Sequence record: NZ_CP024444.1
Direction: 5' to 3' (one strand)
DNA: 64,000 nt
Origin: a plasmid
The position numbers and the translations under genes are program-made. The notes under the pieces are model-generated. The model was given only the letters and a program-made list of their open reading frames with translations, searched no databases and was not told where the DNA came from. This document shows positions 8,109 to 39,619 of this stretch, piece by piece (positions within the stretch are counted from its first letter, which is position 1; each line of letters starts with the position of its first letter).

Positions 8109-10376
8109 ATGAGTACAGCAAACCAGTTATACAACCGCACCGTTGCCAAAAATACAACATTAGCGAAACGCCACTCCCATCAAAAGGGATATAACCACGA
8201 ACGATTGGCAATTCAAGCCCAAGAGTACGGTTATGATGTTAATGAAAATGGTCAACTTAAATACTATGTGGTCGGCACAGTTTTAAATTCAAGTGCCGAA
8301 AAAGAAGGACAGCTCACCAAAGACACAGCAAAAGTTTATTTGCGCAATGTCGATGAAGAGGTTGAATTTCGTCAAAAAACCAATAAACGCGACCCTAATC
8401 AGTTACGTGATACCACGGCGCGTTTTTTTAGAAACCGTGACATCAATGGTTCCTTGCAACGCCTTGCCGAGCAAAACGCTGAAATCTTGGTTTTTGATTA
8501 TCCCCGTGTTGAACAAGAGCAATTGTTTGTTGATGCCGATGGCAATAACAACAAGTTATTAACCGTGTCTGCAAAAACCGTTAAAAGCCGTCTTTATCAG
8601 CCCACCCAAGAAAAACGTCAACAACAGCAGCTAGACCGCATTCAAATTGCGGTTGAAGGGATGGCGAATATTGCCCTTAGCATGAATGCTAACAACGTGC
8701 CAAGAGCGCGTGTTGAGTTAATTGAAGGGGTTGATAGTATCGATATTCAGCCAAAGCAATACGATGAAAGAGGCAAAGTCGATACCAATTTTGCGGTCAC
8801 ACGCGAAAAGGTGGTTGGCTTATTTCGTCACGCCCTATCAGACAAAGAAACCCAAAATTACTTAATTCCTAACCAGTTTACACCTGTTGATAAAAACGGG
8901 GTTCAGTCGGTTCACAATGATGCTGAACGTACTGGCATGATGGTCATGGTATTAAAAGAAAACAACATCCAAGCCGATGGCACCGTCACACGCGACCCAT
9001 TGGACTTTACGGTTAAGATTTTCCCCGAACGTAAACCTAAATTTAAAGGTCGTGATAAAACAGGTCAAAGCGCATTTGTCAGCACGCCTGACGATCCGCT
9101 TGAAACCTTGACTAAAATCATGTCTTGCCAAGACAAACCCACCTTAGACTACGTTGCCTACCCCACTGACTCAAATTTTGAGCGTGCGTTTGCTCAAGAC
9201 GTCGCTCGCGTGGTATTAGGTCATGTGGCTGGTTATGCTACCGATGAAATCTACAACTCAAAAGGTCCTAATGTTGATTACGTGACTAGCCGAAACCCAG
9301 CGGCTAAAGCGACTTTGTCTGACTTGGCTAAAAAGCTTCAAGAAGGCAATGTATCAGTGGATTTAATTTCAGGTCGTAAATTCGATTTGTATTTACACGC
9401 CCAAGATTACATCACTGACCATTTAAAGCCTGCCTATTTTGAAGCTTACCCTGATTTAAAAACCAACCATGATTTATCAACCAAAAAACCTGATACGTCA
9501 TTGGCAGGCTATACCGTGTTTAGTAAAAACCAAAGTGGTGAATACGAATACACTGAAGCCCGTCACAAATTTGCACCAACCTTATTATTGCTCTCACCCA
9601 TTACCCAAGAACGTGATGCCAATAATGAAAAATTAACTGCCTCACCAGGTACGTTGTTGGTACAAGACGCTTTTTCAATAAATTTACGCGGTCCTCGCCC
9701 TGACGAGTCATGCTACTACGAAGAGATTGCTGAATTTATTCAGCAAAATCCACACAATCTAGCTACTCGTGGTCGTGTGTCTTATATGGACCCAAGCCAC
9801 CCCGGACCAAACCCCATGTTGGTCAATAAAGCGATTATGCAATATTTAAACGAAAATCCCTTGCATAAGTCTGCCGATGCTGCAGAACAGGCTTTTGAAC
9901 AGCGTAAACAACAAGAACAGGTTCATGAAGTGGCACCTGTAAGCCCAACTACCAATGCACCAATGACTACCGCCCCAATCACGCCTGCGCCTGACCGTGA
10001 AACTACCTTTAATCACTTAAACAACTTGTTTGAGCAGATTGATAAAAAACAGACCACTGCCAATGATGTGGCGCAAGAGGCAACCTCTACTAGCACGGCA
10101 GTTGGCGAGGCGGTGGTTTCGCACCCAAAGCCCAAACCCGATATCAAAACATCCCTACAAGGCTTGCTTAAAGATATCAAGGCGCAAAAAGACCGAGCCA
10201 CGGTATTGTCTGAAAACGTCGGTGAGCTGATCCAAAAAGAACAGCAACACAACGAGCATTACAATACCAATTCAATCCGTGATGTAACAGCGACTAAGCC
10301 AAACACGCCAGCTGTTACCCATGAGCAAAACGTCGACGTCCCGTATACTATGCCAACGAGCGACCTTGAGCCTTAA
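8109..10376 (+). CDS. large hypothetical protein (755 aa), first gene of the unidirectional ORFan cluster
   Basis: Long ORF with a good RBS (AAAGGTAG). Codon usage is coherent with its neighbours. No signal peptide, TM helix, Walker or other catalytic motif was recognised. Confidence 0.6.
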   Translation: MSTANQLYNRTVAKNTTLAKRHSHQKGYNHERLAIQAQEYGYDVNENGQLKYYVVGTVLNSSAEKEGQLTKDTAKVYLRNVDEEVEFRQKTNKRDPNQLRDTTARFFRNRDINGSLQRLAEQNAEILVFDYPRVEQEQLFVDADGNNNKLLTVSAKTVKSRLYQPTQEKRQQQQLDRIQIAVEGMANIALSMNANNVPRARVELIEGVDSIDIQPKQYDERGKVDTNFAVTREKVVGLFRHALSDKETQNYLIPNQFTPVDKNGVQSVHNDAERTGMMVMVLKENNIQADGTVTRDPLDFTVKIFPERKPKFKGRDKTGQSAFVSTPDDPLETLTKIMSCQDKPTLDYVAYPTDSNFERAFAQDVARVVLGHVAGYATDEIYNSKGPNVDYVTSRNPAAKATLSDLAKKLQEGNVSVDLISGRKFDLYLHAQDYITDHLKPAYFEAYPDLKTNHDLSTKKPDTSLAGYTVFSKNQSGEYEYTEARHKFAPTLLLLSPITQERDANNEKLTASPGTLLVQDAFSINLRGPRPDESCYYEEIAEFIQQNPHNLATRGRVSYMDPSHPGPNPMLVNKAIMQYLNENPLHKSADAAEQAFEQRKQQEQVHEVAPVSPTTNAPMTTAPITPAPDRETTFNHLNNLFEQIDKKQTTANDVAQEATSTSTAVGEAVVSHPKPKPDIKTSLQGLLKDIKAQKDRATVLSENVGELIQKEQQHNEHYNTNSIRDVTATKPNTPAVTHEQNVDVPYTMPTSDLEP

Positions 10377-10455
10377 TATATTGTGACACCAATGGCTATT
10401 AGTTCCCTCTAATAGCCATTTTCCACACACAATAACCACGAATTGAATTTAGGTT

Positions 10456-13182
10456 ATGCTTATGACGCAATCATCAACGACTGCGACGCTAAACCAGCCC
10501 ATCAATTGGCCTGCATTGGATATGTACGGCATCTATATCATGATGCGTTCATTTTCCAATGAATACGGCTTTTATCATGACGAGAATGATCTAAACGATA
10601 AACAAGTCATGACTTTGTTGGTGCTTGATACCAAGCGTGTAATACAACCGCAGTATTTAAAAATCACCCAATTGCATCCCTTGTACATTCCAAGCGATGC
10701 AAGCTTGCCAGCCTTGTATGTGTTTTACCAAACCGAGCAAGGTCTTAATACCGACTATGAATTTAGTCCCAATAAGCTATTAAAATACTTACGCATTGCT
10801 GATAGTGTGCCGTTTAAAACCACCACCAAACGCCAAGAGATACAGCTGTTTAAACAAAAGCTGTTACCGATACGCACCTTTGTCAAAAATCGCTTGGAAA
10901 GTTCAGTGTTACTGGCATTTAACCATCGAGGTGAGGCGGTCTACCAATCAACCTTTGGACGCTTTTATCAAGCCTGTGACAATGACAAGTTGCAACGTCA
11001 TGCTGCAACCGATGCCAATGCTGACTTTTTGTATGCCATTAACGCTAGGCTTAACAAGACCAACAAAATCAATGAGAGCGCACTGCAGCTGTGTGCTTAT
11101 GCTTATTTAAGCTATAACCCAACTTTGCATAGCAAACAAGGCTTTCAGCGGTTTTGTGAGATTATATTTTCAAGCTTCAAGTTGCCAAGTGTTTATAAAA
11201 CCCACGCTGATATCGCTGGCGTGATTGTTGAAAATTTAAACCAACCGCCGTTGCAATTTTCTAACATCCCGTTAGAGTACGTTGAAGCTTTCCATCAAGC
11301 GGTGCTATTTGAGCAGTTTAAACTTGCTTTAGCTGCCATCGATGAACAAGCCCATCCAGCGCGACTGTCGTATCGTTTATTTAGACAGTTATTGTCGAAT
11401 AACGAGCACTTTGCCAATCATTATGATTTTACCCAAATCAACTACCAACGTGCCTCTCTACCCATGCCAATGGCTTATTTGTTGGGTCATTTATTGCATG
11501 CTGACTATGAGCAAGTCAGTAGCAACCCCACCAAGCCTGCCTTGTACTCACCCTCTTGTTTAAATGGCTCGTTATTACTGATATCGATACTCGCCTGTGA
11601 CAACCTGTTTTTAAATGAGCCTGATATCAGTTACGGACAATCACTAAGGGGGCTTAATCAATTAGCGCATAAGCCCAAAGTGCATATCAGCCATGACCCA
11701 TTTGAGCGTTTGCGTGGCTTATTAAGTGATGATAAGCCAGCCTACAGCTCGGCAATTTTGCCATCCGGTCACGCCCTATTTAATGAAGTTATCCCGTTTG
11801 TTGATGCAACGGACAACTATCACCTAAATATTAGTACCACGCGCTTAGACCAGCAATATGCCATTAACTGCCTAACCCAGCGTGATCCAAACGGGCGTAC
11901 TGTGCTAGTCGGTCCGGTAGACGATAATCGCGATGCCGGGCGCATAAATGATAGTTCAGTGGCGTTTTTAAGGTTTCTACAGGCTTATTATCAAGACGTT
12001 ACTGTGGTGGATATTGCCGCCTCTATGCTGGCATCAACGGGCTTTAACACGCCCATACGGTTATATGTTATTGGGCAGGCAAAAACCAAACCTTATTCGC
12101 TACAAGAGCTTAAACAGCGTTGTTATCACATCGATGCCTTATTGCAATTACCCGTTATTCAAAGCTACTATCAATTATTTGATTTAACAGGTGCCTTACT
12201 TGCGATTGAAAAAAATAAACGCAATCCGCTTGAGCTTGCCATGCAAATAAGCCAGCTTACCCATTTAGATGCCACCGTCCCATTAAATCTAGCCTACGAT
12301 AAACAATGGCTTGAGCAAGTATTGGTGAATGACACCACCCAAGTAGCACTGCCAACCACCAGCAACCTTGCCAGCCAAACCGCAACCTCGGGTAGTACCA
12401 ATAAATTAGTGGACTTGCTAAAATCCAATAGTAAATTAACCCCAACGACCGAAGACGCAACGGCTAAAAAAGCAGACGGTGAAACCGACCCACCCATCCC
12501 TGAACTTACGCCACCGCACGAACATGCCACGCATAAACCTGTTGTGGCAGATGACGAGTTGACAAAGCAGCCTGATACACCCGTTAGCACCGATAGCGAC
12601 AAGTCTGAAGGTGACGATAACAATACTGACAATCCAGTACAGACGACTGACGCCACAACCAAAAAAGGCACCAAAAAATCTACCCGTGGCGGCACTTCGC
12701 GCAAAAAAGCGGTGGCAACTACCGATGAAGCGGTTAGCGAAAACACGCCTAGTGACAACACAGTTAGTGATGCAATAACCAATGAGGATAAATCGAGTGA
12801 CGAAACAGCCAATGATGATGATAAAGCGGCATTGGTGGCAGATGCCTCACTGATTTCAGCGACGGACAATGCCGATGAAACCGACGCAGCGGATAAAACA
12901 CGCGATGACAAGGCGCAATCTGACACACCGAACGAACAGCCAGCGCAAGCGCAGGATGGTTTTGAAGACGATAACACCGATGAACTTGTAATAAGTGCTG
13001 AATTAAACGATGAAAGCGATAGAGCTGCGCAAGATAAACTCGCGCATCTTGTCGAAATCGATGAAGATGAATTTACTAAACCCGATCTAAAAGAATTGAC
13101 TGGCGATGATGATTTTTTACAAAGTGTCGACGATGATGAACTTAGCCTAGATGATATCGATTTTTCGGGTTTACTTGACTAG
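10456..13182 (+). CDS. large hypothetical protein (908 aa) with an about 250-aa acidic disordered C-terminal tail
   Basis: Long ORF. The C-terminal third is D/E/T/S-rich and ends with DDDELSLDDIDFSGLLD. No recognisable enzymatic motif. Confidence 0.6.
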   Translation: MLMTQSSTTATLNQPINWPALDMYGIYIMMRSFSNEYGFYHDENDLNDKQVMTLLVLDTKRVIQPQYLKITQLHPLYIPSDASLPALYVFYQTEQGLNTDYEFSPNKLLKYLRIADSVPFKTTTKRQEIQLFKQKLLPIRTFVKNRLESSVLLAFNHRGEAVYQSTFGRFYQACDNDKLQRHAATDANADFLYAINARLNKTNKINESALQLCAYAYLSYNPTLHSKQGFQRFCEIIFSSFKLPSVYKTHADIAGVIVENLNQPPLQFSNIPLEYVEAFHQAVLFEQFKLALAAIDEQAHPARLSYRLFRQLLSNNEHFANHYDFTQINYQRASLPMPMAYLLGHLLHADYEQVSSNPTKPALYSPSCLNGSLLLISILACDNLFLNEPDISYGQSLRGLNQLAHKPKVHISHDPFERLRGLLSDDKPAYSSAILPSGHALFNEVIPFVDATDNYHLNISTTRLDQQYAINCLTQRDPNGRTVLVGPVDDNRDAGRINDSSVAFLRFLQAYYQDVTVVDIAASMLASTGFNTPIRLYVIGQAKTKPYSLQELKQRCYHIDALLQLPVIQSYYQLFDLTGALLAIEKNKRNPLELAMQISQLTHLDATVPLNLAYDKQWLEQVLVNDTTQVALPTTSNLASQTATSGSTNKLVDLLKSNSKLTPTTEDATAKKADGETDPPIPELTPPHEHATHKPVVADDELTKQPDTPVSTDSDKSEGDDNNTDNPVQTTDATTKKGTKKSTRGGTSRKKAVATTDEAVSENTPSDNTVSDAITNEDKSSDETANDDDKAALVADASLISATDNADETDAADKTRDDKAQSDTPNEQPAQAQDGFEDDNTDELVISAELNDESDRAAQDKLAHLVEIDEDEFTKPDLKELTGDDDFLQSVDDDELSLDDIDFSGLLD

Positions 13183-13242
13183 GCATAACCTAGTAATAAC
13201 CACGCCCACGTAGGTAATGATGGGCATTTTAAGAGATAGCGA

Positions 13243-16200
13243 ATGACAACAACGACACCAACCACTGCATTGGTGACCGCTAACGCATTTGATGCTGGCG
13301 TGTTTTTAGACCAAAGCACCACAAGCCCAACGTACCATTGGGTATCACCGCATGCCTCCGCCAAACTTACCCAAGCCATTATTACGGCTCAAAATGAATA
13401 TTATCTTGCCCATAAAGATGACGTGATAGACCCACGCCAGTTAAGCCAGCAGCGTCCCTTGCTTGCCGTGGAAAGTTTGCTGATATGTGCTGTGATATCA
13501 GATAGTCTTGATAACAACGGCAAGTTTGAAATCATCCGTTTGTTTGACTATCAAAACATCATGGATTGTTTAGTGGCTATCACTGAAATTTTCTCGGCGA
13601 CGCCCTATGTGTTGTCATTGTTTAGCTTGCACAACCAAGCTGCCCAGCGCACCACCGAGCAGCTCATTGACCTAATTGAAGCCGCTGAAATCGATCTTGC
13701 CTATCAATTAAAAAAATTTAAGCACCGACAAGACGATGCCTTTGGTGTCACTAAACTATGGCAATTGATTGGCTATATTGTTCAGCAGCTTGCCCATCAT
13801 CAGCGGTTAACTGCCATCCGTTATAGTGAAACCAACCCACTGTTAGCCGAGCAAACCCTTGCCGTGTTTGAATGGTACCAAGCCATTGGTGATGATTTTC
13901 ATGACAATACCATTGCGTTTTTAACCGATTACCGCCAACAAACCCAAGGTATTGCCTTAACCAAGCAACAGGTCAGCCAATTAACCCAATTCCAAAATCA
14001 ACGCCTAACCGAGTTATTAGGACCGCCTAAATTAAGTGAGCAACAGCAGTTACGCGAAGACATGGCAATCCAATACAGCAACCATCAACTGCAACACACA
14101 GAAGGTTATACAGGGGCTTATCTTGAGCAAGATGATAGTTATCCAATGGAACGCTATACCACCCATTCTCGCTTAAATGAGAGCCATTCAGTATTGCCAC
14201 AGCTGTATAAAGAACCACAGGAGGTAATGCTTGAGCGTATCGAGAATGCCTTACAAAGCCGCCTAACCACGCCTGTCAATTCACGCCAATTTGCAAGCAT
14301 ACTTGATGGGTGTGTGGCTATGCGATTAGGTAAAGATAGTAACCAATCGCTACTAGCCCACGGCTATCATGCCTCATTGATGGATGCGCTGGGTGTATTG
14401 AGCTACCTAATTGATGCCCCCGATACCAAACATGGTTTATGGGTGTTAGATGACGTGTCGTTACAAAACCAAGTGATTGCCAATGCCATTTATTTAGGGC
14501 TAAAAAAGCACACTAAGTTGTCACTGCACCTGCCATCACAAGCCGCCTTTGACCCGATTATCACAAGCTATCACGCTTTTTTTGGTAAAGTCGACTTTAC
14601 GCATGCTTGGCATGATGAATTTTACTATGTCAGTATTGAGCGCACCGCCCATATCACGCCTACCAAGCCTAGCATCACGCCAGTCTTTACCCGGCATGAT
14701 AACGATGAATGGGCTGGCTTGATTGTAGAAAATAGTAAAAATGTAACGCGAGCACCGTTACTGCCAAAAACCAAAGTCGATCAAGCCATTGATTGGTTAG
14801 TGGGTAATTTTGCCAGTAAAGACGCACCGCCAGACCTTGACCCGGTGATTGATATGCCACCACTTTGTTTGGTGGTATTGACCAATCCGTCAAGCACACA
14901 AGATGGCTATCAAGCTTTGCTTGCCCAGCTAATGACCGCGCTTAGTTACCCATTGCCACAAACCTTTGTGATTGCCAGTCGCATTGCCCATATCGATCCG
15001 GTATTGGGACTATTACTATCGACCGACGAGCTTGCCCAAACCCAAAAACGCCAAGCGATACTGACCAAACGCCCGTGGCTGCGTAGCCAAGCCTTATTAA
15101 GCCTTTATCAAGATAACCGCCTGTTTGTCCTGCAGCATAAACAAGCACCGATTAACCTTGTCAGCTTTGCAACCAACCATCAACAGACCGCCAGTCATTT
15201 AGCCACCAACCTGTTTAGTAGCATTGCTGAAATGATGGGGCAACTTCAGTTATTGTGTCGCCAAATTGCCATTATCACCAGTTTTCACACCCAACAGCAT
15301 TGTCATTCCGTGTTTGCAAGCCTGCCAATCGCCAAAGTATTATCCATTATTGAGCCTAACTTAAACCTGGCAGCGTTGTTAAAACAAACCTTGGATATGC
15401 TCGCCAATGGCCAGCTACCCTATATTGTAGTGACTGACTCTGCACCACTGCTTGACTTATATGTTCGCGTCAAAACCTTTGAGCATTACAACTTTGATGC
15501 CACCGCCCCAGCGACTCAAATTGACAATTATATCAATCAAGCGGTTCCGGTGAATTTTCCGACCGTGCGTGAATTGTTGTTGCTATTGGTCAATACCCTA
15601 CCTTTGATGTTTTATCACAAAAACGACAAAGTCCACTACATTGATGTCGCGAATAAAGATAATATTGAGCTTATGTCGCTTGAAGACTATTATCACACCT
15701 TAAGCGTATTAACCCAACAGCTCACCCAATTGCTTCAAGAACCATCTTTGCCCGACATTCCGCTGTTACCAGCGCATGCCATTAACTTTCAAATGTCACG
15801 TTATGGCTATCGGTTTTTGCAAGTCGACAAGCTTAATTTTACGTTGACTCCCAACAATCTATCAGCTGATAGCAAATGGTCAGTACAGCGCACCACACCC
15901 ACCACCCTAGCCCTGAATGCCGATGCCATTAACATCGGTGAATTTGATGGCGTGATTGTGGAGGAAAACTGCTTGATTGATAGCTATTTCACCAAACCTT
16001 CGCTAAATCGCTTGTATCAAATATTGCTGCCGCAAAGCTTAAACCAGCTAGAGAGTTATCGGCTATTGGGTCAGTTTCAAAATCCCAACCCACTGGCGGT
16101 TTATCACTACTTTTCGCACACGCCAGTCAAGGCGTTACTGCAAGCTTACTTAACCGCCAAGTCAAAAACCCAATCAACTTTTACGATGCCACACACCGAC

Positions 16201-17739: not shown

Positions 17740-17887
17740 AAAATAAGCAAATATATGTTTGAAATTTAGGATATTTTACTCTATTGTTAACTGCGTATAG
17801 TTTGGGGTTTTAGGCAAAATTCCAACTCAAACTTAATCGCATCACAGCGATTACCTTAATTATTAGCGAATGATAAAGAGAACGGTT

Positions 17888-24399: not shown

Positions 24400-24410
24400 A
24401 GTGAGGGGCT

Positions 24411-28106: not shown

Positions 28107-28115
28107 TTAGTTTTT

Positions 28116-28160
28116 AACACCAATAGTCTTCATGTTGGCTATTGGTGTTGTTATATATTT
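28116..28160 (+). terminator. stem-loop (11-bp stem AACACCAATAG/CTATTGGTGTT) followed by a T-rich tract; candidate terminator or attenuator between two sub-operons of the cluster
   Basis: Inverted repeat read directly, 10 bp after the stop of the 26802 gene. A 394-bp AT-rich non-coding gap follows. Confidence 0.4.
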
Positions 28161-30968: not shown

Positions 30969-30993
30969 AGACTAGGCTAATAGGATAACTATC

Positions 30994-31440
30994 ATGCAAG
31001 CATACGAACAAATACAGTCACATGCCCCAAGCTTTGCCCAAATCACTGATCCAGTCTTCAATGAGCTTTGCGTCGTACAAACTGATATCTTATTTCCGAA
31101 TGTGATACATTACAGTGAACACCCTAAAATATCCCCCGTCCTACTCAATACCGCGACAACTGTGTTAACCCCGATTGACGCGCAAGCCTTGCTCACTAAA
31201 TACGCCAACGAGCTAAAATCACTACATCATACCCTGACCAAAGATTTAGGCTTTATGTCGCTGATTGCATTGGTACACACGTTGTACTTAATGGAGGCAC
31301 ACGCTATGGGTGAACAGCAAGCCATCGATGCTGTGGTTGCACAAACACAGGCGAGATTACACATCAATCAGTCTTTTATCGGTAACCGCTTTATCAACAA
31401 CCCTAATAGCAAAAATAACGAGGTGCCACATGTCCTTTGA
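30994..31440 (+). CDS. hypothetical protein (148 aa)
   Basis: ORF with RBS AGGA. Overlaps the next start by 11 bp. Confidence 0.5.
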   Translation: MQAYEQIQSHAPSFAQITDPVFNELCVVQTDILFPNVIHYSEHPKISPVLLNTATTVLTPIDAQALLTKYANELKSLHHTLTKDLGFMSLIALVHTLYLMEAHAMGEQQAIDAVVAQTQARLHINQSFIGNRFINNPNSKNNEVPHVL

Positions 31441-32113
31441 GCAGACTTCAATTATTGAGAATTCAGCTAAACAAGAGGTGTTGGTGGCGTTATACGACTC
31501 AATACAGACCACGCCTGCCGCCTTGCCACCCAACCAATTGGTGGATTTAATAAATGGCAAAAGTTTTGGTAATCTTGCTGATAACGAACGTGCTGTTTCA
31601 GCCGAGCAGCTTAATGAATTTGCCAACGAACTGTACAAACCCATTTTGGCGCAAAATGAGCTTAAATCTCAATATCATGAGCTTTACGAGCCAGCTATTT
31701 TACAAACCACTAAAAATCAGCTCGCCCACCTAAACCAATCAGCGATTGCGACGTTAACAGGTGAAACCGACTTACTGCCGTTTGAACACTTCTTGCCAGT
31801 GGCGATTAACCCACAAACCATCTTTGTTGATACCCAATACGGTAAAAAGGTCATTGAATTTCTCGAAAAGCAAATGCCGCATACCGATGTGTTTGAAAAC
31901 GTCAAACAGCTATTGTCTTCACGCCTAGAGAAGTATGAAGACACCTATCAAAATGCAATGAATGAAGTCACAACTGATACATTGACAACGCTTACCATTA
32001 AACCAACTCAAGAAACAGTCGAGCCTAAACCTGTTGTTACTGAACCTGAAGATAAACCTACTATCAACTCGCCTGTCGTTATCGATAACGATGATACAGG
32101 ACCTTCTATTTAA
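31430..32113 (+). CDS. hypothetical protein (about 227 aa)
   Basis: The track ORF 31310..32113 overlaps the previous gene. The ATG at 31430 (MSFEQTSIIE), preceded by AACGAGG, is the plausible start. The C-terminus is Pro/Thr-rich. Confidence 0.5.
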   Translation: MSFEQTSIIENSAKQEVLVALYDSIQTTPAALPPNQLVDLINGKSFGNLADNERAVSAEQLNEFANELYKPILAQNELKSQYHELYEPAILQTTKNQLAHLNQSAIATLTGETDLLPFEHFLPVAINPQTIFVDTQYGKKVIEFLEKQMPHTDVFENVKQLLSSRLEKYEDTYQNAMNEVTTDTLTTLTIKPTQETVEPKPVVTEPEDKPTINSPVVIDNDDTGPSI

Positions 32114-32134
32114 CCAAAAGCAAGGATGTAAAGT

Positions 32135-32605
32135 ATGGATATTGCAAGCCTGACTGCCGCAGCGACAACTACCACCATCGCCACCACTGCTGCCACTGCT
32201 GCTGTTGCCACACCTGTTTATTCAGTGGCACACGTACAAAATGCTATGTCACTGGTCGACCCCGGCTTTCAACATGATGCTGGCGAGATTTTTAATCTAC
32301 AACCAGCGATTAAGCTAACCAATCAATCAACCATCGAGTCACTAGATAGCGCAGCTGGCTTGGCTAAAGATTTAAAACACGCCTTATCATCACTGCCTAA
32401 CGAGATCGATATCGAAGAGTTGGCATTTGGCAACGACAATCGTGTGCAAATTGAGCAATTGGCACAAAATGTTTACAACGAAAACCTACGTCAATTGTCT
32501 GACCGCACCATCACGCCTGAATTCAACCCTGAATTTAACAGCACGATTGAGCAAGAAGTCGGTAATGACTCTATTTGGCCAAGTGATGACCCAGCACCAT
32601 ACTAA
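32135..32605 (+). CDS. hypothetical protein (156 aa) with an Ala/Thr-rich N-terminus
   Basis: ORF with RBS AAGGA. N-terminus AAATTTTIATTAATAAVATPV. Confidence 0.5.
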   Translation: MDIASLTAAATTTTIATTAATAAVATPVYSVAHVQNAMSLVDPGFQHDAGEIFNLQPAIKLTNQSTIESLDSAAGLAKDLKHALSSLPNEIDIEELAFGNDNRVQIEQLAQNVYNENLRQLSDRTITPEFNPEFNSTIEQEVGNDSIWPSDDPAPY

Positions 32606-32628
32606 GCGTTTTAACGGGACTATTAATC

Positions 32629-33075
32629 ATGCAAGTATATAAGTCAATCATCACCCACTGGGCATCCAAGATGGAACAAAGCAAGGATGCCATTGTGTTT
32701 AGTTATGAAGATGAAGAGTTGCCACCCGATATCTTGTCATTGTATTTCGGGGATAGTTTTATCAAAGGTGCTTTACAGTACATTTTTATTGTATTTGGTA
32801 CCAATCCCCCTTTGATTGAACAAAAGATTGGGCAACAACTCTCACCAATGATTGATAACGCCCGTTTCATAGAGTTTAATCAATTGCTTGAAAACTTATC
32901 GCATAGTGTCATGAACCCTGATACCGTTCATGTACCACTATCCCAACAAGAAATACACTGGATTGAGCAACTACCAAAACACTTCTTTGCCGAGTGGTTG
33001 TTGTTCTACCTAGATAACAACGTCAAGCCTTTCGCCAATCGCTTAGAACACGCTTTTGCTATCTTTGAGGGATAA
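32629..33075 (+). CDS. hypothetical protein (148 aa)
   Basis: ORF tightly packed between its neighbours, ending 3 bp before the next start. Confidence 0.45.
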   Translation: MQVYKSIITHWASKMEQSKDAIVFSYEDEELPPDILSLYFGDSFIKGALQYIFIVFGTNPPLIEQKIGQQLSPMIDNARFIEFNQLLENLSHSVMNPDTVHVPLSQQEIHWIEQLPKHFFAEWLLFYLDNNVKPFANRLEHAFAIFEG

Positions 33076-33077
33076 TC

Positions 33078-34637
33078 ATGACCGTCTTACCAGCCAAGCC
33101 CCAAACCGATAAAACAGCCGATGTTCATCATTCGGATGTGATACCAGCTGGCGAGAATGACCCAATCAAAACAAATAGCCCGTCGAATGAAGCTAATGCC
33201 CAAACAGGCATAAAGCTTGATTTGAATGCTTTTGCAAAATACTTTTCTGATAATGAGTTACTTATCAGTCTTTTCTTAGAGCTCTGTTTTTTATTACAGC
33301 GCAATAATACCGCTGCCTTGTCTGTAAACGATCTGCAAGTACACCATACCATTTTAATGAAACTGCATAAAGAATACGGACTTACCGGGAATGTTTATCG
33401 AGAGCTTATGCGTTCAATTAGCAATGATGAAGATATGGGTAAGCTGCTTGGTCAATCCAAACACCTAGCTTATATTCGTGGTCAGCACCATGAAGATTAT
33501 GCCCGTATCATCGCCAATTATACCCGGCAAAATGGCTATCTTGTCACCATACAATTAACGGGCGATCCAAAACAAGATTACACCAATCTTAGCCAGTTGG
33601 TTTTGGATATTAAAAGCCAACCGATATTAAACTTAAGTAAGCAACGTTCTGATTTTTGCCAAGTGCAAGCCAATAAAAACTGGCAAGCCTTATATGACGA
33701 GTTAACTAACCCTGTTGCTACGCCAAAAAATCAATTGGTATTATCCTTTAGTCACGATGATAACCACCAAGGAACTAATATACGCTTGTATAAAGCGGTG
33801 TTTTTACTCAAAGAGTTGGTAGCAAAGTATCAAGTTGATACGGTGTCGTTTGATGACTTGACCCTGCATGAACAGCGGCCATCACCGAGCGACGCGCTAT
33901 TAAACACCCATGACTTTTTGTCTTTTGATAATAGCTTTATTTCCATTCAGCCGCATACCAATGATACGGTAAGACCCACCCTATCTAGTGATGTGGTTAT
34001 TATTCAAGATGTCGCAAGTGACGATAAAGAAGGGTCAAACACGCCAGTCGACGAAGATGCCACCAATACCAATGAAACCGCTGAACAAGATAGTGCTAGT
34101 GACCAACAAGCCACCCCTCAACCTAAAGTCCAAGCGACACCGGAACCAAAACCCAGCCTATTTAAGCGATTATTTAGCAAAATTAACCCCAGTCGAGCCA
34201 CCCAAGCAGCTGATAGCGACGTCGTTGATACCACAGCCGATATAAAAACACCCCCATCAAGTCAGGGACTACCCTCTGCAGCAGATAGTAATTCGGTAGC
34301 AACCGCTAATAAGTCCTACTCAAACAATAAAATTCAGCATACTTATCGGGATTGTGCAGGCGTGATGGTGACCAAACCTATCGACCATTGGAAACCTGTT
34401 AGTTGGAATAGTGAAAAATTGTTGGAATTTGAGCGTCATCACCTATCGCTTATTTTCAGCAAGTGTGTTAAAAATGACTTGGCGACTTTAGTTAGTCAAA
34501 AGCAAAAAGCCATTAACATCGATGAATTATTAAAAAATGGGTTTGATTTTCAATGTTTTGCGATAAACGCAGGCTTTTACGCTAAACTTCGCTGGCAAGC
34601 TAACTTGCAAGATACCGTTCAAAAATCAGGTTACTGA
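33078..34637 (+). CDS. hypothetical protein (519 aa) with a central disordered acidic/Pro-rich linker
   Basis: ORF with RBS GAGGGA. The middle region (residues about 300-400) is low-complexity D/T/P/Q-rich. Confidence 0.55.
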   Translation: MTVLPAKPQTDKTADVHHSDVIPAGENDPIKTNSPSNEANAQTGIKLDLNAFAKYFSDNELLISLFLELCFLLQRNNTAALSVNDLQVHHTILMKLHKEYGLTGNVYRELMRSISNDEDMGKLLGQSKHLAYIRGQHHEDYARIIANYTRQNGYLVTIQLTGDPKQDYTNLSQLVLDIKSQPILNLSKQRSDFCQVQANKNWQALYDELTNPVATPKNQLVLSFSHDDNHQGTNIRLYKAVFLLKELVAKYQVDTVSFDDLTLHEQRPSPSDALLNTHDFLSFDNSFISIQPHTNDTVRPTLSSDVVIIQDVASDDKEGSNTPVDEDATNTNETAEQDSASDQQATPQPKVQATPEPKPSLFKRLFSKINPSRATQAADSDVVDTTADIKTPPSSQGLPSAADSNSVATANKSYSNNKIQHTYRDCAGVMVTKPIDHWKPVSWNSEKLLEFERHHLSLIFSKCVKNDLATLVSQKQKAINIDELLKNGFDFQCFAINAGFYAKLRWQANLQDTVQKSGY

Positions 34638-34787
34638 TTGATAAAAACCATGATTTTTTTTGAGTAACTTGGTATCTTGAATTGCAATAAATATCTTATA
34701 ATGTTGTCAATATTTTATATTTTATTTTGATTTGGCATCCAACCTAGTCAACTTTAATTCTTAGCGCATCATAAAAAAGGACTCACC

Positions 34788-37700
34788 ATGTCTTTTATTT
34801 GTCCAACCGATTGTAGTAGTGACCGCGCCGTCAGCATATTACAAAGCATCTTTGGAAAAAACTTTATCGAGTCGTTTTATAAGTCAGGCACACCCAGCCC
34901 TGCCTTAGTCCATGCCGACTCTCATAGCATATTCCCTGTTATTACCAGCAATTTATCAACCGCTGCCTTAACCGTTGTGGGTATTATTATTTCCGTTAGC
35001 ATTATTCGTGGCTTGATGACTTCTGCCAACGATGGCGAGGCGATAGGGGTAAAAAATAATAGCCTTGGTGGTGCTTTTGGACGCCCAATATTTTCTGTTG
35101 CCATGATTACACCCGTGGCTTCAGGCTATATGATAATCAATATTATCATCATGGCTGTGGTGCTTTGGTCTAATAGTATCGCTAACCTTGCCTATAAAAC
35201 CTTTGTTGAAAATGACATTACAGGTGGTACGGCATCGGTTCTTGTCGATGACCCAAACTATCAAAGTGCCAATGATATGATTGTGCCTATGGTGTATGGG
35301 GCATTACAAGGTTATTGCTCAAAATATTCTAATTATAAGCTCAACAATTCGGTGACAATGCGCCAAACTAACGCATGGATTGACGCAACGGGGGTGTTAT
35401 CCAAAACCACGATTAGTGGTGCTCAAGGTCAGCGTACCACCATTGATTATCCTGAAGATGGCATATTAGGTGTGTTAGGCGTTACAGGGTCGGTTTGTGG
35501 TAAATTTGAAGTGACACGTAATGTTCAAGAAGAGCCAGCCATTACAGGCGATACCCAAAGTAAACAACTAGAATCAACTGTTCAACACGATCTGATTGTC
35601 CTTAGAAAACAGATTACCAATGTCCGTGTGAATTATATTTTAGCCGCATATTATGACGGCTATTATTATGCAACAGGTGAAGCACCTCCAGCCCCCGACT
35701 TACAATCAGTTTATCAAAATGGTGGTGGCAACCCTACTTTCACACCCGTTCCGTGGTCAATGGAATTGGCAACCAACACCAATGTTCCTGAAGACCAAAA
35801 ACCCAATGTCACGACTTTGATTAATGCCGCTAAAAACCGCAAATTAAAGCTAGATGCAGAAATACAAAGAATTTTAAATGCCAAGGGTGTTTTGGTCGCT
35901 GACAAAAATGGTCCCCTACCTAACCAACCTCCACCTCCCCAAAACGGGTTAACCACTATGACGGGTGCTTTGGTAAATGAAATTACTGCAGAAGGTTGGT
36001 TATCGGCTGGTAACTACCGTGCGCGTTTTCGTAAATTTACCGCAGGCTTAAGCGACTCTATTGCCAACAAACCCTATACCTACGGTTTACCAAACATAAA
36101 AGTTGATAAAGATGCCAATGAACAAGCTTCATTTATTGAAAGCCTAAATACCATTCGCACAGCCATCTTTGAGCAAATTAAATCAAAGGGCTTGTCACCC
36201 TCTTATTCAATGATTAACGTCGACAGCATTACTTATACCGCAAGCAATGATAAAGTCGATTTAACCACGTTATTGGATGGTCCAAGTTCAGGTGTGATTA
36301 ATGCGGTATTTAATGTCGAACAAGCCATGATTAATACCCTAATTGGTACCGGACCTGGTGAGCAAGTAGATGCCTTACAACGCATCCAAATGACGGGTGA
36401 TTATATTTTTGGCATTGAGTTTTTTATTAAAGCCATTCAAATGGCTACATCTTTAGCGATTGCTATGATTGCCGTGCTTGGTGCGACAGGTGGTGGTTTT
36501 ACTGATTTCGTCTATAAGACTGGTCAATCGTATGAAGGTATTAATAATTTCTATCAAGCCAATCTTGCCACCTATCTTGTAAAATTGGCTGACGATTTAG
36601 ACGTTATTGCCCGTTACTTCTCTACCATCATCCCAACGATGCCTTATGTATTCTTGACTTTGGCTGCCGTCGGATGGTGTATTCAGATTATTCAAACCAT
36701 GCTCGGTATGCCGTTATTCTTTATTATGCATGCTGTGCCACAACGTTCATTCTTGGGTGACCAAATGCAAGGTTATGTGACCTTGATGACGTTGTTTTTC
36801 AGACCCTTAATGATTGTTTCAGCGTTTTTCTTGGCGTTTGTACTCTACGACCCACTACTTACCTTTACCACGCAGATGTATCTATCATTGCATGAAAACG
36901 TCGCTGGAAGTACCTTTGATAGTACCATCCTAAGAATGTATACCGTGTTAAATACGTTTCGTTGGTATTGGCTGATTTTTGCTAACCTACTGTTGGTGGT
37001 AACTTACTACACTTTCGGTTTGGTACAAGAATTGGGTGATACCATTTTTGATTGGCTAGGTACCCGTATCTTTGGTGGTGGATTCGGTAATATGGACACC
37101 AATGGCGTGATGCGAAATGCATCAGTACAAATCGGTGGTGCTCAAGCGCGAAACCGCCAATTACAAGCCGAACGCGCCAAAGCACTCGCCAACCGCAAAG
37201 GTGGTAATGCTGGTGACGCAAATGCAACGGGCGAAGGTGGCAACGGTGGTGGCAATGGCGGTAATGGCGGTGCTAGAGGTGTTGGCGGTAACGATGCCGC
37301 ACGTAATGCCAGTATGTCAGGTGCAATGGGAACAGGTACAGGTTCAAGCCCACAAACACAACAAGCAGGACAAGGTGGTTTTGGTCCAACCGCTGGTGCC
37401 AACCACATGGGCGCAACTGCGCTTATTACAGCTGGTAGTGCCGCAATTGGTGCAGTACGTGGCGCAAGACAACAAGGTACTGCGTATGCGACAGGTGCCG
37501 CAAAAGCCGCAAGTGCAATGGCTGGCGGTGGTAAAGCTGGTAATGCCGCTGGCGCAGCGGCAGGAACAGTTGCAGGCTTGGTAGGTGGTGCGCTAGGTGC
37601 GGCTCGTGGTGGTTATGGTGGTGTAACTCGTGGTCTTAAATCATGGGGTGGTCGCCAATCTTATCAACAAAACTTGAACGAGGCGAGAGCTCGTGGTGCG

Positions 37701-37883
37701 ATTGGTACCAAAGGTTATGATGACCCTACACCATATCAACAAGCTAAAGCACCAACACCGCCAGCGCAAGCACAGGCGCAAAAGACTTCGCCTTATGGCA
37801 TGGGTTCAACGCTTACCCCAAATGTTAACTACACGGTTAATGGTGTTCAGTTTACACAACCAACTAACAAACGAGGCTCATAA
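34788..37883 (+). CDS. polytopic inner-membrane protein (1031 aa). It has 2-3 N-terminal TM helices, an about 400-aa periplasmic domain, an about 5-TM bundle and a Gly/Ala/Asn-rich C-terminal tail; VirB6/TrbL- or DotA/TraY-like architecture.
   Basis: Hydrophobicity read from the translation: TM helices around residues 55-75, 100-125 and 540-760. The tail carries GGNGGGNGGNGGARGVGG ... GGGKAGNAAGAAAGTVAGLVGGALGAARGG. RBS AAGGA. A hairpin follows at 37908-37937. Confidence 0.6.
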   Translation: MSFICPTDCSSDRAVSILQSIFGKNFIESFYKSGTPSPALVHADSHSIFPVITSNLSTAALTVVGIIISVSIIRGLMTSANDGEAIGVKNNSLGGAFGRPIFSVAMITPVASGYMIINIIIMAVVLWSNSIANLAYKTFVENDITGGTASVLVDDPNYQSANDMIVPMVYGALQGYCSKYSNYKLNNSVTMRQTNAWIDATGVLSKTTISGAQGQRTTIDYPEDGILGVLGVTGSVCGKFEVTRNVQEEPAITGDTQSKQLESTVQHDLIVLRKQITNVRVNYILAAYYDGYYYATGEAPPAPDLQSVYQNGGGNPTFTPVPWSMELATNTNVPEDQKPNVTTLINAAKNRKLKLDAEIQRILNAKGVLVADKNGPLPNQPPPPQNGLTTMTGALVNEITAEGWLSAGNYRARFRKFTAGLSDSIANKPYTYGLPNIKVDKDANEQASFIESLNTIRTAIFEQIKSKGLSPSYSMINVDSITYTASNDKVDLTTLLDGPSSGVINAVFNVEQAMINTLIGTGPGEQVDALQRIQMTGDYIFGIEFFIKAIQMATSLAIAMIAVLGATGGGFTDFVYKTGQSYEGINNFYQANLATYLVKLADDLDVIARYFSTIIPTMPYVFLTLAAVGWCIQIIQTMLGMPLFFIMHAVPQRSFLGDQMQGYVTLMTLFFRPLMIVSAFFLAFVLYDPLLTFTTQMYLSLHENVAGSTFDSTILRMYTVLNTFRWYWLIFANLLLVVTYYTFGLVQELGDTIFDWLGTRIFGGGFGNMDTNGVMRNASVQIGGAQARNRQLQAERAKALANRKGGNAGDANATGEGGNGGGNGGNGGARGVGGNDAARNASMSGAMGTGTGSSPQTQQAGQGGFGPTAGANHMGATALITAGSAAIGAVRGARQQGTAYATGAAKAASAMAGGGKAGNAAGAAAGTVAGLVGGALGAARGGYGGVTRGLKSWGGRQSYQQNLNEARARGAIGTKGYDDPTPYQQAKAPTPPAQAQAQKTSPYGMGSTLTPNVNYTVNGVQFTQPTNKRGS

Positions 37884-37907
37884 TTAGTTGCATAACTATA
37901 CAAAAAT

Positions 37908-37937
37908 AAAGGATTGTCAAATAATTGACAATCCTTT
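37908..37937 (+). terminator. perfect 13-bp-arm hairpin AAAGGATTGTCAA-ataa-TTGACAATCCTTT after the membrane-protein gene
   Basis: Inverted repeat read directly, 25 bp after the stop at 37883. The U-tract is weak (TTTATAGG). Confidence 0.45.
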
Positions 37938-38077
37938 ATAGGCGTGTTACGATAATTATGCCATAATTTTTGACCAACCACGGTAAAGTACCTATGTAAA
38001 CCACAAAAATTAACGCACACATAACCATATTTAGACCAGCTGAAGTCGAGAGCAGCTATCTTTATCAAGGAATGGTT

Positions 38078-39619
38078 ATGTCAGACAAAAGCAATAAATA
38101 CATGAATACCGACTTTTTAGAGCCAACCGCCCTAGATGCCGCTATTTATCACTCACAAAACAAGCGTTACGCTGATATTGCCGCCCGACAAGAGCAGGCG
38201 GCATACATACGTCAAGTACGCGCGGAACAATGGGGCGAAGAAGTTTCTAACCAAGCTTTGCGTAACTCATTTGTAGCACTCGCCAAAAAAGCCTACCCGA
38301 CTGAACTAAACTATTTATGGCACTACACTGCTGAATTGCGCGAGCTTTTGGTATATCCTGCCTTGCCTAAACTTATTTACTACCCACCAGGTAATGGTAA
38401 AATCCTTGAGATTGACCCGATTGTGACCAGTAATGGCTTATTTAAAGCTAAAACCTACACAGCACAATATAATGAGCATCACGCCTGCGTGTATTATTAT
38501 CAGCAAATCACTCGCCATACCCGTTTTTTAAACCTGATTAGCGATATGTTAGTTAACTATTCTGAAGCTTTGGATTTAGCCTACAACCATTACCCTGAAG
38601 TCACCGATGACAATGGCTTTTGGACACCCAAAGACTTTATTGCGCGTGAGTTAATTGACCGCTTACACCGTGTTACCCAAGCCGATGTGGTATCAGGCAT
38701 TCAATTAAACACCTTGGATGATACCGAGTTGTATGCGCCTGTATCTCGATGTGAAATTGGTCTAACCCTATTGGATAAATGCTACTCACGCATTGAGGCT
38801 ATCGAGCGTGGCGAGCTTTATCATCCATTGGCTGGTGAGAATTATGTCCCACCAATGCCAGCTCCCATGTATAGCGAACACGCGGCCAATAATGTGTATT
38901 CGGTATGGTATGACACTTTGGCCAATGAAGCGTATGGCTATTACCGGAATTTTGCTGACCAAGACGCCTTGGAAAACACTGGATTTATGGTGGCTGGACT
39001 TAGTTATTTAGACAACGAGCTGGCTCGCGTGATGACACCGTTTCCACCTAACCCAAACAAGGCGGAAGAGCAAAGCATGCAGTACCATATCCGCCAATTG
39101 ATGTTTTTACGCGGTTTAATTCGTCGTAAAGGGCATTTTTTAGCAGCCATTACCCATGTGTTGTTGATGATTTTTGAGCGATTACCACAAGCACAACCAT
39201 TGTTGTGCAACTTAATCTTTAACAACACATTCTATGAATTTGAGCAGCATCTAGCTAAAAGAGAATTTGTTTGTGATTTACCCGATAAAGAACAGTTATT
39301 TAATGATGAAGCATTCTTAAACCTTATCTTTATCAACAACGACAATGCTGATACATTGTTGGACGACTCGGTAAACTTGTATCGTCATGCTGAACAAGTT
39401 ATGGCGCAATTAGCCGAATTACGCGCCAATGGCAATCCAACGCCTGTATGGAATTTCAGACGTGATACTTTTATCAGTGGTGATTATAGCTATACACCTG
39501 AAGTCAAGGCTAACCGAATGCAATTTATGGCAGATGAATACCAAAACTTAGTTGCGTATATGGATGGCTTTAAACCTGTGGAAGAAAGACCTCCTATCCG
39601 CCCAGCTGCCACCCAATAA
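38078..39619 (+). CDS. hypothetical protein (about 513 aa), last gene of the cluster
   Basis: ORF 38072..39619. The ATG at 38078 has better spacing to the AAGGAA RBS. Followed by a clear terminator. No recognisable domain. Confidence 0.55.
   Translation: MSDKSNKYMNTDFLEPTALDAAIYHSQNKRYADIAARQEQAAYIRQVRAEQWGEEVSNQALRNSFVALAKKAYPTELNYLWHYTAELRELLVYPALPKLIYYPPGNGKILEIDPIVTSNGLFKAKTYTAQYNEHHACVYYYQQITRHTRFLNLISDMLVNYSEALDLAYNHYPEVTDDNGFWTPKDFIARELIDRLHRVTQADVVSGIQLNTLDDTELYAPVSRCEIGLTLLDKCYSRIEAIERGELYHPLAGENYVPPMPAPMYSEHAANNVYSVWYDTLANEAYGYYRNFADQDALENTGFMVAGLSYLDNELARVMTPFPPNPNKAEEQSMQYHIRQLMFLRGLIRRKGHFLAAITHVLLMIFERLPQAQPLLCNLIFNNTFYEFEQHLAKREFVCDLPDKEQLFNDEAFLNLIFINNDNADTLLDDSVNLYRHAEQVMAQLAELRANGNPTPVWNFRRDTFISGDYSYTPEVKANRMQFMADEYQNLVAYMDGFKPVEERPPIRPAATQ

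Follow-up and report, generated by a model that had tools for sequence, protein, structure and literature searches.

What does a long array of same-strand genes, nearly all of them outside recognized protein families, contribute to the plasmid that carries it? The window analyzed here comprises 64,000 nucleotides of the plasmid record NZ_CP024444.1. The array in question is a block at positions 8109-39619 that contains 19 plus-strand open reading frames (ORFs), all in the same direction according to a six-frame ORF list. Their products are named in order p1 to p17, DotA and p19 (Table 1). In our view, the block probably supplies the DotA-IcmX arm of a split conjugative transfer system of the Dot/Icm-like type IVB kind (mating pair formation class MPF_I), carried by a megaplasmid of Moraxella osloensis. 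The block is a lineage-specific variant of a known transfer region encoding a conjugative type IVB secretion system (T4BSS), and not a new system. The proteins outside known families are probably accessory parts of the machine and establishment proteins transferred with the DNA.

The only polytopic membrane protein of the block is a member of the DotA/TraY family. It scores above the NCBIfam cut-off (Table 1), matches TraY of plasmid R64 in a phmmer comparison (E 5.5e-7) and shares 36% identity with DotA of the Acinetobacter plasmid pAB3. Its C-terminal tail is rich in Gly and Ala, with 62 Gly among the last 272 residues, and both the polytopic character and the Gly-rich tail had been described in the initial annotation. 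The other 18 of the 19 products have no match in Pfam, NCBIfam or PHROG, even at E up to 10. Pfam alone matched none of the 19, and PHROGs returned no family for the ten block proteins tested. The initial annotation had reported no diagnostic signature in any product. This holds for Walker A, DExx, HUH and NPPY motifs, which are absent from all block products, but a type IV secretion signature does exist in DotA and in three IcmX-like proteins. The length of DotA varies considerably, from 884 aa in pAB3 and 1031 aa in the window to 1400-2300 aa or longer in loci of Psychrobacter, Moraxella and metagenomes, and the C-terminal extension is highly variable within this clade.

The IcmX-like proteins belong to a set of four consecutive products, p7 to p10, for which signal peptides had been proposed. 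Judged by hydrophobicity only, the signal is clear for the 476- and 434-aa products (p7 and p10) and weaker for those of 337 and 399 aa (p8 and p9). The pair recognized earlier as paralogs, p9 and p10, shares 24% identity (E 5e-24), and the profile of one family retrieves the other with an hhalign probability of 100% (E 1e-49). p8 matches the p10 family at 97.7% and the p9 family at a still higher probability (Table 1), and p8, p9 and p10 form one family. Compared with the R64 Tra/Trb proteins, each of the three family profiles matches TraW best (P 3e-4 and E 4.6e-4 for p9; P 1.6e-4 over 156 columns for p10; P 0.015 for p8), and in R64 traW adjoins traX-traY. An AlphaFold2 model of p9 from a 44-sequence alignment reached a predicted local distance difference test (pLDDT) score of 72 overall and above 80 for approximately residues 140-310. 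The model begins with a long N-terminal helix, followed by an extended domain in the center and by C-terminal helices, one of them long. In a Foldseek search with this model, the top match had an E of 8e-3 and the next match an E of 1.6. R64 TraW itself does not retrieve IcmX by sequence. Based on the profile-profile, Foldseek and R64 TraW matches, we conclude that p8, p9 and p10 are IcmX/TraW-like. In Legionella, DotA (VirB6-like) and IcmX (VirB5-like) form a pentameric central protochannel (bioRxiv 10.1101/2025.06.23.660953; PMC12857230).

The exported set reaches beyond M. osloensis. When the 220- to 434-aa products were concatenated and used as a tblastn query, 175 PLSDB plasmids proved to encode homologs of p8, p9 and p10 (337, 399 and 434 aa) at about 30% identity. 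Most of these are from Acinetobacter, including pAB3 of A. baumannii ATCC 17978 (typed as MPF_I, MOBP and conjugative), and one is a Serratia symbiotica plasmid. Three tandem IcmX/VirB5-like paralogs are thus widespread. The first protein of the set, p7, is unrelated to the IcmX-like proteins in profile-profile comparison and carries three invariant cysteines (C108, C155 and C204). Homologs of p7 lie directly upstream of the IcmX-like genes in every related locus (L008, L010, L013-L016, pAB3 and the Serratia plasmid).

The replicon itself can be placed with some precision. Positions 8109-33000 of the window are 99.5% identical over 100% of their length to the M. osloensis plasmid pMOXF1 (CP040258.1, 248 kb), the sole match among 72,556 plasmids. 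From position 40000 onwards the identity is 99.6%, and similarity reaches approximately 52200. Taken from its first base to this point, the window matches pMOXF1 at 99.5% identity. The 755-aa product p1 is an exact match to ATR79715.1/WP_100271069.1 of M. osloensis and is found again in dozens of metagenome and isolate assemblies. From these matches, the window's replicon is identified as an M. osloensis megaplasmid related to pMOXF1. The recorded source of pMOXF1 is "mycoplasma culture contaminant". Across the 18 genes of equal length in the window and pMOXF1, 58 synonymous and 37 non-synonymous differences give a ratio of non-synonymous to synonymous polymorphism (pN/pS) of 0.18. Individual genes fit this pattern (p1, three synonymous and one non-synonymous difference; p2, six and one; p13, six and one). 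All block ORFs are intact in both plasmids, including those of 755-1498 codons. The low ratio and the intact ORFs argue against decaying junk, also for products without homologs, and the block genes are under purifying selection.

Related loci were fetched around p9 homologs of 50% identity and comprise Psychrobacter sp. AOP31-A1-22 (L008) and four metagenome contigs of 33-376 kb. A genome scan with restrictive peptide patterns gave two further loci, in Moraxella sp. ZJ142 and Acerihabitans sp. TG2, and is not a census of block occurrence. In the related loci, the plus strand carries large variable proteins followed by p6-like, p7-like, three IcmX-like, p11-like and p12-like genes. The p17-like, p16-like and p15-like genes follow on the opposite strand, and then DotA. 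DotA is present in every related locus recovered. The earlier view of a secretion-associated block that is functionally tied to dotD/C/B is supported, and the block is plasmid-borne rather than core genome. Because p6, p7, p11, p12 and p15-p17 are kept beside DotA in the Psychrobacter, Moraxella sp. ZJ142 and metagenome loci, they are best regarded as conserved T4BSS-linked proteins.

The block is probably one arm of a machine whose other parts lie at a distance. On the minus strand at 41537-51993, the genes are ordered topoisomerase III, DotM, a 450-aa protein, ParM, a 90-aa protein with two transmembrane segments, DotB, DotC and DotD, which places DotM, DotB, DotC and DotD 5-12 kb downstream of the block. 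The dotD/C/B and icmT-like genes noticed earlier in the neighborhood are confirmed as DotD, DotC, DotB and an IcmT-like gene at 48542-51993. The best R64 match of the 90-aa protein is TraK, which is not significant (E 0.17). The ParM/StbA actin-like gene and the gene for the 450-aa protein without family match (46028-48476, minus strand) lie inside the dotM...icmT-dotB-dotC-dotD operon, an unusual site for a partition ATPase. Further machine parts are encoded on pMOXF1, 60-80 kb away. At 77-98 kb, this plasmid encodes DotI and DotH (both by Pfam) together with a homolog of TraU/DotO (E 3e-62) and a coupling protein of the TrbC/DotL type (E 9e-52), the type IV coupling protein having a TraG-D_C domain. 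A DsbC-like protein and an M23 peptidase are also found there. With DotO and DotL elsewhere on pMOXF1, the block would represent one arm of a split type IVB system. The initial annotation had proposed an undescribed system, which does not hold for a block that encodes DotA/TraY and three IcmX/TraW-like proteins, with DotO and DotL on pMOXF1.

Beyond dotD, pMOXF1 carries a 45-kb array of small co-directional genes including ssb, an ArdC-like DUF1738 gene and genes for pentapeptide-repeat proteins. In appearance, the array resembles the leading region of a conjugative element. With E values between 1e-5 and 1e-8, the IcmX-like family profile retrieved the M23 peptidase proteins of pAB3 (L006:35154-37031), the Serratia plasmid (L007:22936-24051) and pMOXF1 (104488-106521, equivalent to L005:4488-6521), which suggests that these T4BSS plasmids encode a fusion of a peptidoglycan hydrolase with an IcmX/VirB5-like domain. 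Within or near its T4BSS genes, pMOXF1 further encodes a trimeric autotransporter adhesin of the YadA type and a protein with MORN repeats (111843-114353 and 87101-88513; L005 and L004).

The block is predicted to form two transcription units, 8109-28106 and 28501-39619. Intergenic distances range from -11 to 188 bp with the sole exception of a 394-bp gap at 28107-28500. Terminator-like hairpins lie at the start of this gap and at the end of the block (Table 1), so the two-unit split and closing terminator proposed earlier are well supported at the sequence level. The closing hairpin has a folding free energy of -16.3 kcal/mol (z -4.7), and equally good folds occurred in none of 200 shuffles. 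Promoter-like hexamers follow the first hairpin at 28246-28273 and 28374-28402 as consensus matches only. A perfect inverted repeat between dotA and p19, with the arms ATAAAGGATTGTCAA/TTGACAATCCTTTAT, overlaps a TTGACA hexamer and is a candidate operator or attenuator. An Rfam search of the window found no RNA family. Among the junctions described earlier, those at 29634 (ATGA overlap) and 31430 (11-bp overlap) are correct, while the gap at 33075 measures 2 bp instead of 3. The initial annotation had counted about 21 genes without relatives. The common direction and the sizes stand, but the number is 19, as two further plus-strand ORFs past 39619 are a TnpB gene and a 96-aa ORF. The lack of relatives applies strictly to six products found only in M. 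osloensis, of 755, 878, 498, 148 (at 30994), 227 and 515 aa (p1, p4, p5, p13, p14 and p19), while the others have relatives.

Table 1. Positions of the features discussed, in the window unless preceded by a locus number. Locus numbers (L) designate sequences used for comparison, with L008 being Psychrobacter sp. AOP31-A1-22. TM, transmembrane segment.
Feature	Unit	Position	Strand	Description
p1	first	8109-10376	+	755 aa, cytoplasmic; known only from M. osloensis plasmids
p2	first	10456-13182	+	908 aa; degenerate N6-adenine-methyltransferase-like domain (about residues 1-600) and acidic disordered tail of about 300 aa
p3	first	13243-17739	+	1498 aa; probable strawberry-notch helicase relic
p4	first	17870-20506	+	878 aa; P/Q/T-rich, low-complexity, with Gly/Ala-rich hydrophobic segment; no family match; in PLSDB, pMOXF1 only
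p5	first	20585-22081	+	498 aa, acidic, cytoplasmic; no family match; in PLSDB, pMOXF1 only; cluster of 45 members
p6	first	22191-22853	+	220 aa; C-terminal hydrophobic helix, TM 186-204; same position in L008 and L014
p7	first	22969-24399	+	476 aa, exported or anchored, Ser/Thr-rich; hydrophobic N-terminal segment 29-47
p8	first	24411-25424	+	337 aa; short IcmX/TraW-like paralog; hhalign versus p9 family 99.1%, E 1e-18
p9	first	25571-26770	+	399 aa; putative IcmX/TraW (VirB5-like) protein
p10	first	26802-28106	+	434 aa; IcmX/TraW-like paralog; classical signal peptide, N-terminus ...LAIVIATSLSAEAMA/S
Terminator-like hairpin		28115-28150	+	14-bp stem, T-rich tail; directly 3' of the p10 gene, ends first unit
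p11	second	28501-29637	+	378 aa, cytoplasmic; follows the IcmX-like genes; homologs in L008, L010, L013, L015; no family match
p12	second	29634-30968	+	444 aa, cytoplasmic; homologs in five related loci; coupled to p11 by ATGA overlap
p13	second	30994-31440	+	148 aa; M. osloensis only; no homolog in related loci; none in PLSDB beyond pMOXF1
p14	second	31430-32113	+	227 aa, acidic; M. osloensis only; start 31430 agrees with pMOXF1 annotation
p15	second	32135-32605	+	156 aa, acidic (14% D/E, 4% K/R); next to DotA; homologs in L008, L014
p16	second	32629-33075	+	148 aa, acidic; next to DotA; homolog in L008; positional counterparts in L010, L013-L015
p17	second	33078-34637	+	519 aa, cytoplasmic; homologs in L008, L010, L013-L015, always beside DotA
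DotA/TraY	second	34788-37883	+	1031 aa; VirB6-like inner-membrane channel protein; TIGR04346 DotA_TraY, 189.9 bits (cut-off 100), residues 14-758
Inverted repeat		37906-37939	.	Perfect, 15 bp; between dotA and the p19 gene
p19	second	38072-39619	+	515 aa, cytoplasmic; M. osloensis only; no family match; in PLSDB, pMOXF1 only
Intrinsic terminator		39632-39661	+	AAAAAAACCGCTT-ACCA-AAGCGGTTTTTT; strong hairpin, then U-run; closes the block
DotM/TrbA-like		44383-46011	-	Inner-membrane protein (coupling-complex subunit); PF23127 DotM_C, E 3.8e-32
90-aa protein		48542-48814	-	IcmT/TraK position, between dotB and parM; two hydrophobic helices
DotB/TraJ		48843-50162	-	ATPase; PF00437 T2SSE, E 3e-26; R64 TraJ, phmmer E 7e-41; Walker A GSTGSGKT
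DotC/TraI		50159-51457	-	Lipoprotein-family outer-membrane core component; PF16932 T4SS_TraI, E 1.2e-48; R64 TraI, E 1.6e-26
DotD/TraH		51457-51993	-	Lipoprotein; PF16816 DotD, E 1.2e-6; lipobox-like ...LSATGC
Long DotA homologs		L010:16579-21164; L015:16538-21182; L016:16870-21075		Also in L013 and L014

The large cytoplasmic proteins at the head of the block are the most variable part, as proteins at the position of p1-p5 differ strongly between related loci. p1 has no match in Pfam, NCBIfam or PHROG, and its tblastn search against PLSDB gave pMOXF1 only. The p1 cluster has 45 members, all from M. osloensis or metagenomes. In UniRef, a variant of p1 is named "Large polyvalent protein-associated domain-containing", a label that the Pfam search here did not reproduce. 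The origin of p2 and p3 is more apparent. Upstream of their p7/IcmX-like sets, pAB3, the Serratia plasmid and Acerihabitans each carry a gene for a giant protein of about 2000 aa with N6-adenine methylase and strawberry-notch helicase domains (AAA_34, Helicase_C_4). The methylase region of these giants is matched by residues 2-583 of p2 (E 2e-17 for Acerihabitans, 9e-14 for Serratia and 4e-8 for pAB3). The catalytic motifs are altered, with NPPF of motif IV changed to ILPS and EPTGGNG of motif I to SPSCLNG. An acidic low-complexity tail makes up approximately the last 300 residues and ends in ...DDDELSLDDIDFSGLLD. Residues 835-906 of p3 are collinear with the start of the helicase C lobe in all three giants (BLAST E 8e-6, 1e-4 and 3e-3; hhalign probability 81.7%, P 1e-5). 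Apart from the members of its own 90% cluster, a search of 5.8e9 proteins gave no homolog of p3, which matches only itself in PLSDB. It has no Pfam match, no Walker A and no DExH motif, and the LFLDESH of the giants has no counterpart. p3 is probably the relic of the helicase half of the same giant as p2, on modest evidence. The simplest reading of the pair is a split, catalytically dead descendant of a methylase-helicase dyad, for which the alignments make a good case in p2 and a modest one in p3. Methylase-helicase polyvalent proteins have been proposed to be delivered via the conjugation apparatus (PMC5512222).

Some observations on these genes stand apart. The p4 gene differs by 27 nt in length from the pMOXF1 copy. 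p2 is called at 854-923 aa in different metagenome contigs (L019-L022), presumably due to length variation in low-complexity tails. The cluster of the 1498-aa protein includes short fragments filed as Mycobacterium tuberculosis and Pasteurella multocida (contigs of 233-442 bp), most likely M. osloensis contamination of those assemblies.

In the second unit, DotA is accompanied by cytoplasmic proteins of small to medium size. For the seven products p11 to p17, encoded between the IcmX-like genes and dotA, pMOXF1 is the only PLSDB plasmid with homologs. The p12 family forms only 13 clusters among 1.84e9 representative proteins, all of them lacking a Pfam domain, and an AlphaFold2 model from a 7-sequence alignment was unusable (pLDDT 33). 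Sequence-profile searches of the Protein Data Bank (PDB) with the p7, p12, p15, p16 and p17 families gave nothing meaningful. Comparison by hhalign of the p7, p11, p12, p15, p16 and p17 families with 11 R64 Tra/Trb proteins and with each other revealed no relationship. IcmS/IcmW-type adaptors were considered for p15 and p16 and are unsupported, as no IcmS, IcmW or LvgA appeared among the PDB matches of their sequence profiles at E up to 10.

How might such a transfer region work? The first unit would provide the large cytoplasmic proteins and then the exported tip or channel set of p7 and the three IcmX-like proteins, while the second unit would supply small and medium cytoplasmic proteins together with DotA. 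p1-p5 may accompany the DNA through the T4BSS and have an early role in the recipient, either in establishment or in anti-defense. The scaffolds of p2 and p3 might serve as binding or decoy proteins rather than enzymes. p11, p12 and p15-p17 would be lineage-specific accessory factors of the channel or coupling complex. A bolder version holds that this Moraxellaceae type IVB clade has replaced the usual enzymatic establishment protein by a non-enzymatic p1-p5 battery, in which scaffolds of the pseudo-methylase and pseudo-helicase kind are translocated to decoy or inhibit the defenses of the recipient, with p11, p12, p15-p17 and the three-paralog IcmX tip recognizing and delivering them. We offer this version as a tentative idea that is possible but doubtful.

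Several points weigh against the block being an arm of a conjugation system with transferred establishment proteins. DotO, DotL, DotH and DotI are all missing from the 64-kb window and were seen on pMOXF1 only, the one replicon checked. No window product has an HUH motif or belongs to a relaxase family. Among the large hypothetical proteins of pMOXF1, Pfam scans revealed no relaxase either, and MOB-suite types pMOXF1 as non-mobilizable. As no relaxase is recognized on pMOXF1, we infer conjugative function from relatives. The p9 model is of moderate confidence (pLDDT 72), and sequence-profile searches of the PDB with the p9 family do not find IcmX. The helicase relic in p3 is one 72-residue segment of modest significance. 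Six products have no homolog at all, an accessory role of p11-p17 is read only from the conserved neighborhood, and we infer the translocation of p1-p5. p1 and the other large proteins were considered as the missing relaxase and rejected for want of an HUH-type motif or relaxase family.

These gaps leave room for other explanations. The T4BSS could also, or instead, serve host interaction like the Dot/Icm systems of Legionella and Coxiella, with p1-p5 and possibly p19 as effectors into eukaryotic or competitor cells and p15 and p16 as adaptor chaperones. Large homolog-less proteins with disordered tails would fit this role, and so would the lack of a recognized relaxase. DotM binds Glu-rich Dot/Icm signals, of which the strongly acidic C-terminus of p2 is reminiscent, and a DotM_C protein is present. 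Small acidic proteins beside dotA recall Legionella, where icmW lies beside dotA, and pMOXF1 adds the YadA-type adhesin and MORN-repeat proteins near its T4BSS genes. The genetic context, however, is of the conjugation type, with ParM, topoisomerase III, a coupling protein with a TraG-D_C domain and a leading-region array with ssb and an ArdC-like gene. p15 and p16 have no similarity to IcmS or IcmW, and the closest characterized system, that of pAB3, is a conjugation machine (PMC10746170). The apparent descent of p2 and p3 from a methylase-helicase pair of conjugative-element establishment proteins (PMC5512222) also speaks against host interaction, which we consider improbable. The initial annotation had seen a mix of envelope components and large cytoplasmic proteins as plausible substrates, a description that fits, and its effector or cargo arsenal possibly applies to the five large proteins. 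Two of them being decayed methylase-helicase derivatives points to recipient establishment rather than host-cell effectors.

The loss of catalytic motifs in p2 and of all helicase motifs in p3 could alternatively mean that the genes without relatives are decaying, functionless remnants of polyvalent or accessory genes, which hitch-hike between the essential icmX-like and dotA genes. The six products without relatives and the strong variability of large proteins at this position between loci would agree with such decay. Yet the longest ORFs are unbroken in both plasmids, and the low pN/pS, with p1, p2 and p13 as examples, indicates constraint. These proteins are found again in dozens of samples, and the genes are closely packed as in an operon, with stop and start codons overlapping, leaving decay with only a slim chance of being correct. 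Slimmer still is the chance of an independent, undescribed trans-envelope secretion system that merely neighbors the T4BSS genes. It would explain why 18 of the 19 products lack a curated family match and why cytoplasmic, exported and polytopic products form a compartment logic. Against this, the sole polytopic membrane protein is DotA and the exported paralogs are IcmX-like, both integral parts of a T4BSS, and DotA occurs in all related loci. The block itself encodes neither an ATPase nor a secretin or outer-membrane component. With the membrane and exported families being DotA and IcmX, an independent system is excluded for practical purposes. A phage structural or packaging module was also considered, and Pfam portal, terminase or tail domains are absent from the block products, as are PHROG families from the ten proteins tested.

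The surroundings of the block bear marks of mobile elements. The TnpB gene directly after the block terminator (39764-40882; an IS200/IS605 accessory gene with a Cas12f-like TNB domain) has an 83%-identical paralog on pMOXF1 (36836-37942), where a further TnpB gene is found at 246584-247690. In pMOXF1 only, an extra IS256 element separates the 96-aa ORF from the topoisomerase gene. At 52297-53178, a DDE transposase gene of the IS5 type marks the junction between the Moraxella plasmid backbone and a module that extends to the end of the window at 64000 and carries genes for a uvrA-like ABC ATPase, NDH-2 and formaldehyde detoxification (frm). This module is 97-99.6% identical to plasmids of Acinetobacter baumannii and A. 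pittii. In pMOXF1, the same position right of dotD is occupied by the leading-region gene array, which indicates that the window's plasmid is a recombinant variant. The block has a G+C content at third codon positions (GC3) of 0.40, compared with 0.35 for the dot genes on the minus strand and 0.26 for the uvrA/frm genes. The earlier contrast in codon usage between the block and the uvrA/frm genes is therefore real, but these genes are another mobile module matching Acinetobacter plasmids and not host core genome.

Upstream of the block, the divergent promoter region contains two tandem 27-nt repeats of 93% identity (7277-7330). A 136-aa ORF (7455-7865) precedes the block in all samples and contains two tandem 21-nt repeats (7664-7705). 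Directly upstream and divergent from the block lies a minus-strand operon that encodes a 504-aa protein with about eight hydrophobic helices and no Pfam match (4834-6348) as well as 211-aa and 221-aa proteins. Further left, a minus-strand gene for an Arc-like DNA-binding protein of 336 aa (2931-3941) adjoins a Dcm-type cytosine methylase gene (1247-2692) and a gene for a DUF1643 protein. The Arc-like protein has three paralogs at 116-126 kb on pMOXF1 with 31-50% identity.

Type IVB conjugation systems spread resistance plasmids in Acinetobacter and relatives, and only 11-12 Dot/Icm orthologs have been studied in such systems (PMC10746170). This plasmid clade carries further conserved genes beside dotA, none of them annotated, including the Cys-containing p7, the three IcmX-like proteins and a cytoplasmic set restricted to the Psychrobacter/Moraxella branch. 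Nothing here overturns current understanding. The new elements are modest but concrete, namely three tandem IcmX/VirB5-like paralogs, the Cys-rich exported p7, cytoplasmic proteins outside known families beside dotA, a pseudo-methylase/pseudo-helicase pair and six homolog-less products under purifying selection.

Comparison with known systems shows both kinship and divergence. The Dot/Icm genes of pAB3 are required for conjugation and for RSF1010 mobilization (PMC10746170). pAB3 is also from Moraxellaceae and shares the split organization, with a dotDCB cluster and a dotIHGF/dotO/dotL cluster (PMC10746170). Like the Serratia plasmid, it carries the giant methylase-helicase, a p7-like gene and three IcmX-like genes, with DotA further on, and its IcmX-like proteins are 30-40% identical. 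In contrast to pAB3, the giant of the window is split into two proteins without catalytic motifs, p1, p4 and p5 have no counterparts, and the genes between the IcmX-like set and DotA are unrelated, those of pAB3 encoding an LPD1 protein and other hypotheticals. pAB3 is furthermore typed as MOBP, whereas no relaxase is recognized on pMOXF1. The IncI1 plasmid R64 (traW-traX-traY, traH-K and trbA-C) has TraY/DotA, TraJ/DotB and TraI/DotC homologs detectable by sequence, TraW as its nearest protein to all three IcmX-like families, and a large transferred polyvalent protein (Sog, LPD7) embedded in its tra region. R64 has one TraW instead of three paralogs and no counterparts of p7, p11, p12 and p15-p17, and no TraX, TraV, ExcA or NikAB counterpart was found in the window.

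The DotA-IcmX protochannel of Legionella pneumophila (PDB 9ngy) resembles the block in having a DotA family member, an IcmX-like fold and DotA and IcmX encoded close together. Identity to IcmX is only 13-14%, three paralogs are present here instead of one, and the DotA of the block has a Gly/Ala-rich C-terminal tail. The context here is a conjugative plasmid and in Legionella chromosomal virulence, and no IcmS, IcmW, IcmQ, IcmR, IcmF or DotU was recognized here. Three IcmX paralogs raise the question of how the tip of a pentameric DotA-IcmX channel is composed. Compared with the polyvalent dyad of methylase and SWI2/SNF2 (strawberry notch) helicase described by Iyer et al. 2017 (PMC5512222), the pair is split here into two ORFs and lacks every catalytic motif (NPPF, GxG, Walker A and DESH), LPD or peptidase domains could not be detected, and p2 has gained its long acidic tail. 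The methylase homology of p2 and the helicase C-lobe segment of p3 follow the same order and occupy the same place in the transfer region as in such proteins. The split dead methylase-helicase pair appears to represent an anti-restriction enzyme that is becoming a pseudoenzyme while under selection.

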